Below are positions 54,242 to 58,813 of a DNA stretch of 62,475 nt, piece by piece. Source of the stretch: a virus; IMG/VR virus record IMGVR_UViG_3300049002_000008, positions 1-62,475 of that record; one strand, given 5' to 3'. Position 1 is the first letter of the stretch. The number at the start of each line of letters is the position of its first letter. A model generated the notes under the pieces. It was not told where the DNA came from. It ran no database searches and saw nothing but the letters and a program-made list of their open reading frames with translations. A program made the translations under genes and the position numbers.

Positions 54242-54366
54242 TGGTCGAGTGGTGGCAGTACACGCGGTGCCCAAGGTGCTTCTGCGCCTGGGCCTGCGTG
54301 TGGCTGCGCGGCCCGCTCAGGTACTGCAAGCGCCCGCACGCAGGGAGGAAGCGCCATGAAGGCTAG
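54241..54366 (+). CDS. Possible Cys-rich micro-protein (41 aa)
   Basis: TAGTG overlap upstream. VVEWWQYTRCPRCFCAWACVWLRGPLRYCKRPH. High GC3. Overlaps the SNF2 start by 11 nt. Confidence 0.35.
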   Translation: MVEWWQYTRCPRCFCAWACVWLRGPLRYCKRPHAGRKRHEG

Positions 54367-56314
54367 GCTGCGCGGCAACCGCATCGTTGTGGAGTTCGTC
54401 AGTGCTCGGGACGAGGCGTCCACGCTGGTGCGTGGTGGGCGTTGGCTGAAGGGCTCGCCGGAGTACAGCTACCCGCTGAGCATTGCCAAGTGCCAGGAGA
54501 TGCGCCGCGCGTGGGGCAAGGACCTGCACGTTGAGCGAGCCCTCGGCGATTGGTACCGCACAGCTACCACAGCTCGCGACCAGCAGGCCGAGAGGGCAGA
54601 GGCTACCGAAGCCACCAGCCTGCCGAACCTAGAGCGCCTAGCGCCCGAGCTGCTGGCCTGGATTGGCCCCGACCAGCGGGCAGCGGCCAGCTGGATCGCA
54701 CACGCTTACGAAGGCGCTGGCATCCTCGCGGACGAGCCGGGTCTCGGCAAGACCTACTCGACGGTAGCTGGCTTGTACGAGCTGAACCCCGTCGGCCCCG
54801 TCCTCATCGTGTGCCCGAAGATCAGCGTGAAGACAGTATGGCAACGGCACCTCTCGGGCGGTCCCTGGCCGGTCTACGCCGCCCGGGGCACGCGCGCCCA
54901 GCGCCAGCAGGTGCTCGACGCCTTCTTCGCTGACCGCGCGTCTACCAAGGTGCTCATCGTAGTGGCCGAGATGCTGCGCGCGCAGGGAACCCTCGATAAG
55001 TTGGGCGGTGGCAAGGGCACCCGCTTCCGGGTCACCGGCTTCGACTATCCCGAGCTGTTCGGCATCACCTGGACGGTGGCGGTACTGGACGAGAGCCAGA
55101 AGCTGCTCGGAGCCCTCACCATCACCAAGGGCAACCTGATGAGCCATGGCCTGCGACACCTGGACGTGGCGCCCGCACCACTGGGCCTGCGCCTGATGGT
55201 GTCGGGAACCCCGTTCGGTCGAGGTGGCGACGTGGAGGGCTTCTTCGGTCACCTGCACTGGGGCTGGCCGAAAGAGTTCACCGCCTTCTGGCGCTGGGCC
55301 GACGAGAACTTCGAAGTGACCGAGGACAGAGTGTTCATCCGGGGCGGCCACGGGGCGACCCAGATCGTGCGCAAGGTGGGCCGGTTGAAGGGCGGCAAGA
55401 GCGAGGAGCAGTTCTTCAAAGACCTAGGGTCGCGCGTGATGCGGCGCACCCTGGAGGAGGTGAGCCCAGCACACCGAGGTCTGCGTGGTTACGAAGAGGT
55501 CGTGTGTGAGATGACCGACAAGCAGCGAGCGCAGTACTCCGCATTCGTGGCAAACGCCGAGGTGGCCGTAGAAGGTGGCATCATCACCGCAATCGGCAGC
55601 CTGGCGGAGATGACCCGGGCTCGCCAGCTCGCCAACGGCGTCCTGCGAAAGGAGGGGGAGGGGAAGGGCTCTGTCCGGTACACCGGTGAGTCCGGAAAGC
55701 TCGATGCCGTGATGCAGCGCCTCGAGGAGATGGGCCTGCGCGGCACCCCGAACCCCAACCGTCGAAAGGTGGTCATCGCCAGCCAGTGGAACGCCTATCT
55801 CGAGGCGCTCTGCCAACGGCTCGACATGGAGGGCACCCCGTACCATCTGATGACCGGTAGTAGCAGTGACGTCGCGCGGGATCGTATGATGGACGAGTTC
55901 CAGGCCGAAGGAGGGCCTCGTCTGTTCATTATGAACGGACGGGCGGGCGGCTTCAGCATCACCTTGGACGCCGCCGACTGGCTGTTCCAGCTGGACGAGA
56001 TGTTCCCACCGGAAGCCAACGAGCAGCTCCACCGGCGCATCTTTCGGCGCAGCCGGGTTCACGAAGCGCGGGTGGTGTACTTCCGCAGCGAAGACAGCAT
56101 CGACGTGAACATCGCCGGGGATGTGGCCGTCACATTGGCCGAGCAGTTGAAGGTGCTCGACGCCCGCCGCGGCCTCAACACCGTGCGCGAGCTGCTCCGT
56201 ACCACCAGCGACGGCCGACGGCCCTACCTGGGCAGTACCAAGGCGCGCAAGTGCCCGCAGTGCGGGGCGCGGCGCAACATGTTCCACGAGCCTGGATGCG
56301 AGGGAGAGAAATGA
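54356..56314 (+). CDS. SNF2-family helicase/translocase
   Basis: Motif I ADEPGLGKT, motif II AVLDESQKL, and C-terminal helicase motifs (GGFSITL, QLHRRIFR). Confidence 0.8.
   Translation: MKARLRGNRIVVEFVSARDEASTLVRGGRWLKGSPEYSYPLSIAKCQEMRRAWGKDLHVERALGDWYRTATTARDQQAERAEATEATSLPNLERLAPELLAWIGPDQRAAASWIAHAYEGAGILADEPGLGKTYSTVAGLYELNPVGPVLIVCPKISVKTVWQRHLSGGPWPVYAARGTRAQRQQVLDAFFADRASTKVLIVVAEMLRAQGTLDKLGGGKGTRFRVTGFDYPELFGITWTVAVLDESQKLLGALTITKGNLMSHGLRHLDVAPAPLGLRLMVSGTPFGRGGDVEGFFGHLHWGWPKEFTAFWRWADENFEVTEDRVFIRGGHGATQIVRKVGRLKGGKSEEQFFKDLGSRVMRRTLEEVSPAHRGLRGYEEVVCEMTDKQRAQYSAFVANAEVAVEGGIITAIGSLAEMTRARQLANGVLRKEGEGKGSVRYTGESGKLDAVMQRLEEMGLRGTPNPNRRKVVIASQWNAYLEALCQRLDMEGTPYHLMTGSSSDVARDRMMDEFQAEGGPRLFIMNGRAGGFSITLDAADWLFQLDEMFPPEANEQLHRRIFRRSRVHEARVVYFRSEDSIDVNIAGDVAVTLAEQLKVLDARRGLNTVRELLRTTSDGRRPYLGSTKARKCPQCGARRNMFHEPGCEGEK
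55642..55668 (-). repeat. Polar motif, inverted (minus-strand) copy A
   Basis: The + strand reads cctgcgaaaggagggggaggggaaggg. Its reverse complement is cccttcccctccccctcctttcgcagg. Confidence 0.65.
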
Positions 56315-56544: not shown

Positions 56545-56636
56545 CCAGACTGGACTCGCAGTTGCTCACGTGAGCAACCCGTAGTCCGCGTAAGATGGCC
56601 ATTGCGAACACAAACATCAACCAAGGAGATGCCAGC

Positions 56637-57119
56637 ATGGCGAAGAAGGACAAGGCCGCGAAGCCCGCCCCCGAGCCGGAGGTGGAGGAGACCGAGGAGT
56701 CCAGCGGCGGTCGTGGTCCGGGTGAGCTGCACGAGGCGATGGCCGACTGGCTCAACGAGAACTTCGAGGGCGAGCACGACCCGTACACGGTGTACCTGGC
56801 CCAGACGCAGCGTCGGGCCTTCCGGGAGTCCGAGGCGTACGCGGCCATCAAGGCGGCGCAGGAGGAGCGGGCTGCCGAGCGCGAGGCCGCCGCCGCCAAG
56901 CGAGCCGAGGCGCGCGCCGCGAAGGGGGACGACGAGGAGGAGGCCGCCCCGCCGAGGAAGCCCAAGAAGGCGGCGACAGCGGCGGCGGCCGAAGAGGCCG
57001 CACCGGTGGTGAAGGCCAAGAGCAAGAAGTCCAAGACGGCCGCGGCGCCCGCCGCCGAGCCGGAGGCCGCGCCCGCAAAGGGCAAGAAGGGTTCCTCCAA
57101 GCGCGCGGCAGCGTTCTAG
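56637..57119 (+). CDS. Lys/Ala/Pro-rich histone-H1-like tail protein (nucleoid-associated candidate)
   Basis: SD aaggaga precedes ATG 56637. C-terminal PRKPKKAATAAAAEEAAPVVKAKSKKSKTAAAPAA. Confidence 0.4.
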   Translation: MAKKDKAAKPAPEPEVEETEESSGGRGPGELHEAMADWLNENFEGEHDPYTVYLAQTQRRAFRESEAYAAIKAAQEERAAEREAAAAKRAEARAAKGDDEEEAAPPRKPKKAATAAAAEEAAPVVKAKSKKSKTAAAPAAEPEAAPAKGKKGSSKRAAAF

Positions 57120-57159
57120 CGCCGGAGGCCCTGCCCTGGCAGTACGGGTAGGGTCTACG

Positions 57160-57268
57160 GGGGTGGTGGCTCAGCGGATGGAGCGCAGGGCAAGGCCGGG
57201 ATCGGTGAGGTGCATGCAGCCCCCGGCTGAGGACCCTGAGGTCGCAGGTTCGAGTCCTGCCCACCCCA
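57160..57268 (+). tRNA. tRNA-like gene with a 36-nt insertion in the anticodon loop (possible anticodon GAG)
   Basis: Acceptor GGGGTGG/CCACCCC + A73. U8. D arm GCTC-AGCGGATG-GAGC. Anticodon stem CAGGG/CCCTG encloses 43 nt ending CTGAGGA. Variable loop AGGTC. T arm GCAGG-TTCGAGT-CCTGC. Confidence 0.5.
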
Positions 57269-57410
57269 CGGAGGAAGTGCGAGCGGTTGTTGCCATGCCC
57301 GGCTAACCCCGGGGTCATAGCCAGCCAGGCGGTCACCGTAGGTCGCACATGTCGGTAGGGGTTAGGCCGACACAGGGGCACGCCGGAGATGCAGTCTGCG
57401 CAGTTGCTGG

Positions 57411-57445
57411 CCGGTCTAGTGGAGTTCGAGTCTCCCCGTCGCCCA
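57411..57445 (+). ncRNA. Orphan T-arm/acceptor-like element (not foldable as a full tRNA)
   Basis: ggag-TTCGAGT-ctcc followed by ccgtcgccca. No matching 5' acceptor strand or D arm upstream. Confidence 0.25.
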
Positions 57446-57464
57446 CGCAGAAGGAGGATGCGCA

Positions 57465-57659
57465 ATGACGTTCATGTTGCTCGTGTTGCTGGCGCTGGTC
57501 CTGAGCGTCGTGTCGCTGGTGGTGTACCTTATGAGGCTGGGCATTCGTATGCTCACTCTGTGGGCTGCCGTGGTGTTCTATCAGGCGCCAGGCACTAATG
57601 GTGACGTCATCGGATTGGCCGCTAAGATGTTCACCTATGTAGTACGGGGCAAGCGATGA
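57465..57659 (+). CDS. Small membrane protein (64 aa)
   Basis: SD gaaggagga upstream. TM segment FMLLVLLALVLSVVSLVVYL. Confidence 0.5.
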   Translation: MTFMLLVLLALVLSVVSLVVYLMRLGIRMLTLWAAVVFYQAPGTNGDVIGLAAKMFTYVVRGKR

Positions 57660-58813
57660 AGAAGTACACCACGAAGCCGGGCTTGGTCATGATGCGCACC
57701 AGTGAGCGCAGCGACTTCAAGCGGTGCCAGTGGCTGTGGTTCGTGCGCTGGGTGCTCGGTCTGGTCGGCAACCGCGTACCGACGTGGGCCTGGTTCGGCA
57801 CCGCCGTTCACAAGGCTCTCGAGGTGCGTTACCCGGTGGGCCTGAAGCGGGGGCACATGGCCGACGTGCTGGCCGCCTTCGAAGCTGCGGTCGACGGCCA
57901 GGTGGGAAAGATCTACACCGAAGGCCAGGAGGCCGACGAGGAAGAGATCGTCAATGCTACCGAGCTGGGTAAGGCGATGCTCATCGGGTACGCCCAGCGG
58001 TACGGCCGGGACCAGCACTGGCAAGTGATTCACACCGAGCAACCCTTCCAGATTGACGTACGGGACCCGGCCACCGGTAAGCTTCTGCTCGTCTACTGCG
58101 GCACCTTTGACATGGTGGTGTGGGACCGCAGCACCAAGCGCTTCTACGTGGTGGACCACAAGACCCGCAAGACCTTCCCGGCGGTCTGGACCTTCTACGA
58201 CCTGAACGACCAGGCGGGCTCGTATATCTGGGTGGCACCGGAAGTGCTGGAGCACCTGGGCGTGTTCACCAAGAAGGACAGCAAGCGCGTCGAGGGCCTG
58301 GTGTTCAACGCCCTGAAGAAGGCCCTGCCGGACACCCGCCCGAAGAACGCACTGGGCGAGGCCACGAACAAGCCGCAGAAGGCGCACTACATCGAAGCGC
58401 TCAGCAACGAGGGCATCCTAGCTGCGGACGGCAAGCCACTGGCCAAGGCGACCATTCCCCGCCTCGAGGAGCTGGCCGCTGCGGCCAAGCTAGAGGTGGT
58501 TGGAGACGTGAGCGTCATCCAGCCGGGTCCGCTGTTCCATCGGTACACCAGCCGACGAGGCCCCGAGGAGCGCGTCCGGCAGGCTCAGCACGTGCTCAAC
58601 GAAGCCAAGCACATGAACGCTGTGCGCCGCGGCAATCTCCCCATTCTGAAGAACAAGACCGAGGAGTGCGTGCGGTGTCCGCTGTTCGATATGTGCCAGC
58701 TAGACGAGCTGGACCCCTTGCAGGGTCAGGAGTACGCCGAAGCGACGCTGTTCAAGAGAGACCCGTATGCCGACCACCGAGAAGCCATGGCCGTGAACGG
58801 CGTACGGCTGTGA
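57656..58813 (+). CDS. PD-(D/E)xK Cas4/RecB-like exonuclease with a Cys cluster
   Basis: FYVVDHKTRK (D..K core). N-terminal Cys (RCQW) plus C-terminal ECVRCPLFDMC (Cx2Cx5C). Confidence 0.7.
   Translation: MKKYTTKPGLVMMRTSERSDFKRCQWLWFVRWVLGLVGNRVPTWAWFGTAVHKALEVRYPVGLKRGHMADVLAAFEAAVDGQVGKIYTEGQEADEEEIVNATELGKAMLIGYAQRYGRDQHWQVIHTEQPFQIDVRDPATGKLLLVYCGTFDMVVWDRSTKRFYVVDHKTRKTFPAVWTFYDLNDQAGSYIWVAPEVLEHLGVFTKKDSKRVEGLVFNALKKALPDTRPKNALGEATNKPQKAHYIEALSNEGILAADGKPLAKATIPRLEELAAAAKLEVVGDVSVIQPGPLFHRYTSRRGPEERVRQAQHVLNEAKHMNAVRRGNLPILKNKTEECVRCPLFDMCQLDELDPLQGQEYAEATLFKRDPYADHREAMAVNGVRL

Follow-up and report, generated by a model that had tools for sequence, protein, structure and literature searches.

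The window analysed here is the whole of IMG/VR record IMGVR_UViG_3300049002_000008, a complete virus (62,475 bp, about 65% GC) that carries direct terminal repeats and whose genes all run rightward. Because its exonuclease shares no more than 39% identity with the exonucleases of cultured Zierdtviridae and other actinophages, we regard the window as belonging to an uncultured actinophage lineage. A tRNA-like element lies within a gap of 346 nt (57120-57465), around which the following genes are arranged:

54356-56314, plus strand: SNF2-type helicase, on the 5' side of the gap
56595-57119, plus strand: Lys/Ala-rich protein of 174 aa, on the 5' side of the gap
57465-57659, plus strand: hydrophobic ORF of 64 aa, on the 3' side of the gap
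57656-58813, plus strand: PD-(D/E)XK (Cas4-like) exonuclease, on the 3' side of the gap

The 174-aa protein is very rich in Ala, Lys and Glu, has no Pfam or PHROG match and looks histone-like or nucleoid-like. In relatives its C-terminal end is kept as ...AAF or ...SPF followed by the stop codon, and it always stands just 5' of the slot that holds the RNA.

The tRNA-like element and the hairpin preceding it consist of these parts:

57126..57156, plus strand: GC-rich hairpin of 11 bp, after the upstream stop codon and ending 3 nt before the element (RNAfold, 60 nt upstream)
57160..57268, plus strand: tRNA-like element (sequence reading; covariance model R1, see below; ARAGORN intron mode; covariation in 10 orthologues)
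57160-57166 / 57261-57267, plus strand: acceptor stem of 7 bp, GGGGTGG/CCACCCC (sequence reading)
57169-57184, plus strand: D arm GCTC-AGCGGATG-GAGC with GG in the loop (sequence reading)
57186..57238, plus strand: extended 'anticodon' arm with no conserved anticodon loop (sequence reading, relatives' arms, folds)
57186-57190 / 57234-57238, plus strand: anticodon stem CAGGG/CCCTG, enclosing 43 nt (57191-57233)
57194-57200 / 57222-57228, plus strand: inner helix GGCCGGG/CCCGGCT, separated from the base stem by an internal loop
57244-57260, plus strand: T arm GCAGG-TTCGAGT-CCTGC (sequence reading)
57268, plus strand: discriminator A73 (sequence reading)

The body of the element carries T8, a variable loop of 5 nt (AGGTC) and the conserved tertiary nucleotides U8, A14, G18G19, T54-C56 and G53-C61; the terminal 7 nt of the 43-nt loop read CTGAGGA. 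A preliminary description of the locus had reported a canonical tRNA body whose anticodon stem encloses 43 nt, and all of these features were found in their places. With a canonical elongator tRNA (RF00005) the element shares the 7-bp acceptor stem, U8, the GG-containing D arm, the 5-nt variable loop, TTCGAGT and A73. In contrast to such a tRNA, the loop closed by its anticodon stem has 43 nt where 7 are normal, and no anticodon is common to the orthologues. The canonical 7-nt loop with U33 and a purine at position 37 is absent from the element as encoded, a 7-nt loop appearing only after a hypothetical excision. The hairpin that had been described inside the insert is indeed present as the inner helix, but comparison with shuffled sequence gives the inserted arm of the window no significant gain in stability (z -1.05).

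Standard searches handle this element poorly. ARAGORN in default mode reports 0 genes in the window; the check with a standard finder that had been proposed thus ends with the element being missed. In intron mode, ARAGORN gives a 74-nt tRNA-Leu(gag) with the loop CUGAGGA and a 36-nt intron between positions 31 and 32. At gathering thresholds Rfam has 0 matches in the whole window, and a relaxed search returns a partial tRNA match at 57204-57268 with 24.6 bits, the gathering score of RF00005 being 29 bits. A covariance model (R1) was built from 11 relatives with the window excluded. Its sole match in the 62-kb window is 57160-57268 (67 bits, E 4e-14; runner-up 13.5 bits), and the window element is therefore a clear member of the family. 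The covariance-model check consequently speaks against the element when the general tRNA model is asked and for it when the model from relatives is asked. Upstream of the exonuclease in relatives, 8 loci are called by the Rfam tRNA model at 46-54 bits and so pass gathering, with lengths of 70, 71, 87, 89, 99, 104, 104 and 108 nt; the orthologue at locus L007 (76 nt) stays below the threshold.

Relatives were collected in several ways. By DNA search, IMG/VR holds one close relative, a single contig found under the handles L002, L003 and L006, with an exonuclease 85% identical to that of the window. A second near relative, L005, comes from a soil metagenome (exonuclease 79% identical), so that the near clade as sampled here comprises three sequences: the window, the L002/L003/L006 contig and L005. 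A protein search showed further exonucleases with 78-87% identity (P0002-P0011) in JGI and Logan data. Another 18, more distant, phage loci (30-57% identity) came from an alignment of exonuclease homologues. Scanning IMG/VR with exact patterns of the element returned the one close relative and nothing else, while megablast and blastn matches to cultured phages were limited to generic tRNA 3' halves. The cultured Zierdtviridae GuyFagieri and RedRaider have neither the gap nor a tRNA at the equivalent position. The element belongs to one clade of uncultured, lytic-looking actinobacterial phages that are distant kin of Zierdtviridae.

Important insight can be gained from comparing orthologues. 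The same element occurs in the same place, 5' of the exonuclease gene, in 10 phages. Over the alignment of these 10 sequences, 98% of the cells in the acceptor, D and T stems hold standard pairs, compared with 37-49% in a control in which the partners were slid by 1-3 columns. Five pairs show changes on both sides, e.g. 3-70, which is UA, CG or GC. Pairing of the acceptor and T stems is kept by compensatory changes even where the neighbouring exonuclease is just 51-57% identical.

The central arm behaves differently. Its lengths in the ten copies are 53, 52, 48, 43, 46, 31, 31, 15, 14 and 17 nt, and its sequences are unrelated between copies, each folding as a single closed irregular hairpin. 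In relatives these arms are more stable than shuffles, with z from -2.1 to -4.1, but L011 reaches only -1.04. Within the near clade the base stem covaries, from CAGGG/CCCTG over CGG(T)GG/CCCCG to TCGGC/GCCGG. The tail of the presumed anticodon loop reads cTGAGGA in the window, gTGGGGA in L006 and CCAAATG in L005; in the case of L005 every possible splice was tried and none yields a U33.

In intron mode, ARAGORN assigns the ten orthologues to Leu(gag), Pro(ggg), Leu(caa), Arg(tct), Glu(ctc), Gly(gcc), SeC(tca), Glu(ttc), Lys(ctt) and none, i.e. nine different amino-acid/anticodon identities for one orthologous element. The proposed introns range from 8 to 36 nt and lie at positions from 30/31 to 35/36. 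Different 'anticodons' are called even among copies with the same acceptor and T stems. Three copies are of normal length, with the loops GCAGGGA, CCUUCGC and CACUUGG, all without U33. An uninterrupted orthologue had been named as something that would speak for a pseudogene; copies without the insert do exist at the locus, yet they are non-canonical themselves.

Altogether, the alignment shows a tRNA-derived RNA family in which selection maintains the stack of acceptor stem and T arm, the elbow between D and T arms and the discriminator A, but no anticodon. On the same comparison, the anticodon arm is free to vary in length and sequence provided that it closes on itself. The earlier claim of something tRNA-like that is not an ordinary tRNA is borne out by the kept body, with its 98% pairing, and by the 43-nt loop without shared anticodon. 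We consider it likely that the element is a selected, non-decoding look-alike of a tRNA, and it probably cannot read codons.

Similar elements were detected at other loci. Scanning the relatives' whole genomes with the Rfam tRNA model gave 1-3 tRNA-shaped genes in each of five records and one in a sixth. Four other relatives' records have no tRNA-shaped gene by this model, and because two of them (G006 and G007) are complete, the element must be dispensable. In the other-locus copies ordinary decoding is impossible throughout: one has the arm CCGGG-GAAA-CCCGG with a tetraloop, another the arm CCGG-CAAACA-CCGG, a third a D loop of 16 nt and an 'anticodon' loop of 11 nt, and a further one a 9-bp arm with an 8-nt loop. 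These copies stand alone, directly 5' of a gene.

The surroundings of the copies are also alike. All 14 copies are preceded by a strong GC hairpin (-20 to -39 kcal/mol), which lies after the upstream stop codon and stops 2-6 nt short of position +1, and CG comes directly after the discriminator in 13 of the 14. In the other-locus copies, and in a second element of the window, a Shine-Dalgarno sequence and a start codon are found 14-22 nt after the discriminator. All copies have the same orientation as the genes. Between hairpin and element there is no room for a promoter, and the element is therefore taken to be co-transcribed with the upstream sequence.

At the exonuclease locus no gene comes directly after the element; conserved structured RNA continues for another 100-190 nt. 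In the window, the following features could be identified there:

57269..57375, plus strand: conserved structured RNA '2a' (alignment with L002 and L005; folds)
57277-57282 / 57343-57348, plus strand: closing helix of 2a, GTGCGA/TCGCAC
57351-57355 / 57367-57371, plus strand: invariant hairpin of 2a, GTCGG/CCGAC
57376..57445, plus strand: reduced tRNA-like element '2b' without D arm, with discriminator A at 57445 (T-arm motif scan, constrained fold)
within 57376-57445, plus strand: acceptor of 2b, GGGCACG/CGT(C)GCCC, with one bulged C
57421-57435, plus strand: T arm of 2b, GGAG-TTCGAGT-CTCC, with the same TTCGAGT loop
57446..57467, plus strand: leader CGCAG-AAGGAGG-ATGCGCA, then the ATG (57465) of the 64-aa ORF

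The inner hairpin of 2a differs in sequence in each of the three phages, and its 3' part GGTCACCGTAGGTCGCACATGTCGGTAGGGGTTAGGCCGAC is almost invariant. In L005, 2a runs directly into the ribosome-binding site of the next gene. Element 2b, 176 nt downstream, holds the only other T-arm motif in the window. Its constrained tRNA-like fold has -23.3 kcal/mol as compared with -25.9 kcal/mol for the MFE, an alternative in which GGAGAT pairs with GTCTCC being 2.6 kcal/mol more stable. It is identical in L002 and absent in L005, and CG follows it as in other family members. The stretch 57330-57450 is almost invariant between window and L002, though the exonucleases are 85% identical. No Rfam family was found for the 2a/2b region, relaxed search included. 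The intergenic slot after the Lys/Ala-rich gene seems to be a hot spot for structured RNA.

In the more distant relatives a different conserved motif, GGGGCACCCACSGTYYGGTGC, follows the tRNA-like element. It has 5 exact matches in bacterial genomes, which we read as chance; the sole placed one lies in a release-factor gene (GGTHRLVR), and none of the five has an Rfam match. A candidate hammerhead in the 2a of L002 was likewise rejected as coincidence: CUGAUGAG is without GAAA or a cleavage triplet, and neither the window nor L005 contains it. An invariant motif GGGGCACCCAC(G/C)GT(C/T)(C/T)GGTGC was also noted about 60-100 nt past the element in L007, L008, L010, L011, L012, L013 and L019. It can form a hairpin GCACC/GGTGC and is followed by a long GC hairpin containing TCCAC. 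After that hairpin the leader GGAGGAGAAGCTATG, or a near variant, occurs in about half of the loci (L007, L008, L011, L013). Small hydrophobic ORFs stand directly 3' of the RNA elements in the window (57465-57659, 64 aa) and in L005 (~2387-2512); they match no known family and resemble single-pass membrane proteins.

RNase P, RNase Z and the CCA-adding enzyme recognise exactly these parts of a tRNA, namely the acceptor/T stack, the elbow and the discriminator, and none of the three needs the anticodon arm. We tentatively propose, as a reading that is plausible but somewhat short of an even chance, that the element is a non-decoding tRNA-like mark for cleavage of the phage transcript by host RNase P and RNase Z. 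This explanation is favoured because the kept parts suit these two enzymes, and because a hairpin lies just upstream and a leader with its gene just downstream. The element would be transcribed within a rightward polycistronic RNA. Host RNase P would cut at 57159/57160, so that the protective hairpin 57126-57156 would form the end of the upstream mRNA. The cut after A73 (57268/57269) would be made by RNase Z of the host or by a different enzyme of 3' processing. The products would be a tRNA-shaped RNA of about 109 nt and a downstream RNA starting with CG, and the reduced copy at 57376-57445 might repeat the cutting just 5' of the leader of the 57465 gene. tRNA mimics would then act as punctuation of the phage transcript, as t-elements do in plant mitochondria.

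Some observations speak against such processing. Bacterial RNase P prefers U at position -1, and this position is mostly C in the copies. The hairpin lies 2-6 nt from the proposed cut, which would leave a short single-stranded leader. The element is moreover dispensable, being absent from G006 and G007.

The closest known parallel is provided by the t-elements of plant mitochondria, non-canonical tRNA-like structures at which RNase P and RNase Z cleave the mRNAs (Forner et al. 2007, PMC1920247). RNase P makes the 5' cut and RNase Z the 3' cut, and t-elements are unable to decode (PMC1920247). Both t-elements and the phage element are non-canonical cloverleaves with a kept acceptor stem and a GGTTCRANYCC T arm, and both stand at gene borders in polycistronic transcripts (predicted in the case of the phage). 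Unlike the organellar t-elements, for which cleavage has been mapped experimentally, the phage element is from a bacterial phage and its cuts are predicted ones. It also differs in its almost perfect D arm and its extended hairpin arm, and there is no common descent. A full-text literature search for phage tRNA-like processing elements found no description of one.

If the processing explanation is true, host tRNA-processing enzymes help to shape phage gene expression, as in mitochondria. tRNA finders would mislabel such elements as intron-bearing or odd tRNAs, or miss them, and phage tRNA counts and codon-usage arguments would be inflated or distorted. The element family would offer a simple, testable system.

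The kept features of the element would suit a decoy equally well. Acting as a decoy or sponge, the released tRNA-shaped RNA would itself be the product and would titrate some host factor that recognises tRNAs by their acceptor end or elbow. Toxins of the nucleotidyltransferase or pyrophosphokinase kind, which modify tRNA 3' ends, would be examples, and without an anticodon the RNA would leave translation undisturbed. Conservation limited to the acceptor, T and D parts with a free anticodon arm agrees with this, as do the position among early and recombination genes and the accessory nature of the element, which is present or absent among complete relatives as counter-defence genes often are. 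Phage tRNAs are also known to counter tRNA-targeting defences. According to van den Berg et al. in 2023, phage tRNAs with altered anticodon loops reportedly escape anticodon nucleases while the 7-nt loop and decoding are kept. Like these, the phage element is a tRNA-shaped phage gene whose anticodon region departs from that of the host; unlike them, it has no usable anticodon loop, and an RNA that lacks this loop could not distract defences that cut there. A decoy also leaves the fixed hairpin 2-6 nt upstream and the nearby downstream Shine-Dalgarno sequence and ATG unexplained. On balance we regard it as possible but unlikely. It can coexist with the processing explanation, and a combination, in which RNase P and RNase Z release an anticodon-less mimic that acts as an anti-defence decoy by titrating toxins or sensors of tRNA 3' ends with decoding unaffected, seems to us distinctly unlikely.

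Since 100-190 nt of structured RNA follow at the exonuclease locus, the element may be the 5' part of a larger non-coding RNA. Element, 2a and 2b would then form one uncut unit of about 290 nt that could, for instance, stabilise or regulate the mRNA for the downstream small gene and the exonuclease. The near-invariance of 57330-57450 would fit such a unit, as would the presence of 2a in all three close relatives and of the GGGGCACCCACSGTYYGGTGC motif after the element in more distant ones. Against it stand the other-locus copies, which occur alone directly 5' of a gene, the loss of 2b from L005 and the lack of an Rfam family for the region, and we consider this reading very unlikely.

Decay had been suggested before, and a one-time phage tRNA gene that took up an insertion and now drifts without function would explain why standard finders reject the element, why its anticodon arm is disrupted and why some relatives have lost it entirely. 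Plain decay is improbable in view of the acceptor and T stems, whose pairing is kept through compensatory changes at 51-57% exonuclease identity with just the anticodon arm degenerate. No copy shows damage outside that arm, conservation extends to the flanking hairpin and the CG, and the extended arms of relatives are more stable than shuffles (z down to -4.1). A decaying pseudogene thus has little chance of being the right explanation.

The preliminary description had pointed to a spliced tRNA-Leu reading CUC/CUU. In this reading the element is a real decoding tRNA(GAG) whose 36-nt insert is removed by a cut-and-rejoin pathway, like the short introns of Lak megaphages. The clean tRNA-Leu(gag) of ARAGORN intron mode is in its favour, and for L006 this mode proposes Pro(ggg), with UGGGGA in the corresponding position. 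CUC and CUU account for 34% of the phage's Leu codons, so that the codon-usage check that had been proposed comes out in favour of a use for such a tRNA, but the anticodon itself is not conserved. The 'textbook' loop CTGAGGA is present as described, but it is easily obtained by chance and is absent from L005: when one block was deleted from random 43-nt loops of local composition, U33 with R37 arose in 21% and Y32-U33-R37-H38 in 8% of trials.

In bacteria, tRNA-Leu belongs to the class II tRNAs, which have a long variable arm. The spliced tRNA-Leu is unsupported because the variable loop has 5 nt, the anticodons and introns shift between relatives (the two closest ones differ in anticodon, and L005 has no U33 loop at all), the insert-free copies have no U33 and the phage has no splicing endonuclease or RtcB. 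In addition, the insert has no bulge-helix-bulge motif and no group I core, and the stacked helices total about 12 bp, which is short for RNase III. We therefore hold a spliced decoding tRNA to be scarcely probable.

In the case of the Lak megaphages, tRNA genes with 'enigmatic' short introns have been reported (Devoto et al. 2019, PMC6784885), i.e. phage tRNA introns of unexplained mechanism, which is a further point for splicing. Lak tRNAs and the phage element are both over-long tRNA-shaped phage genes with an insert in the anticodon region that is too short for a group I intron. In Lak the same tRNA occurs with and without insert, the anticodon is clear and the introns are identical across cohorts (PMC6784885), whereas in the phage element the anticodon is not conserved and the insert-free copies are also non-canonical.

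Several other candidates were examined and set aside. Group I introns measure about 200 nt or more and have a P3-P9 catalytic core; the insert has 36 nt and no Rfam match even at E up to 10, and here the earlier judgement that it is too short holds. A bulge-helix-bulge intron was rejected since the unpaired segments face each other as an internal loop and are not 3-nt bulges 4 bp apart, and since the phage is without PF01974 and RtcB. A search of the phage genes found no RtcB, tRNA-splicing endonuclease (PF01974), CCA-adding enzyme or Ro/TROVE protein, and no tyrosine integrase or serine recombinase either. An attP core was rejected as the phage has no integrase and the element no host tRNA match; T arm and acceptor of the element occur in no bacterial genome among 185,579 species. 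No tmRNA or two-piece tmRNA is called by ARAGORN for 57160-57450, and no tag reading frame was seen by eye. A K-turn in the internal loop CAA/GAGGA lacks the required G-A on the non-bulged strand. An ORF on the minus strand (56848-57465, 205 aa) was discarded: its length is not conserved in L002, the genes are all on the plus strand, and the compensatory changes point to RNA.

YrlA, as Chen et al. in 2014 are said to have described it, has ends that emerge from the anticodon side and works with a Ro/Rsr protein. YrlA and the phage element are both non-decoding bacterial or phage RNAs with a tRNA-like T arm, D arm and acceptor. The phage element differs in its normal tRNA arm order, and there is no TROVE protein in the phage. 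A Y RNA acting with Ro was rejected on these two grounds, the match to the Rfam YrlA model (15.2 bits, E 4.4, gathering 69) being noise.

A different structured element was observed in L014, L016 and L021 (~2530-2740), loci without a tRNA-like element. It consists of a GC hairpin and a long-range helix CTCAGAAGGTGACACGG ... CCGTGTCACCCTCTGAG, and it occupies the same slot after the Lys/Ala-rich gene.
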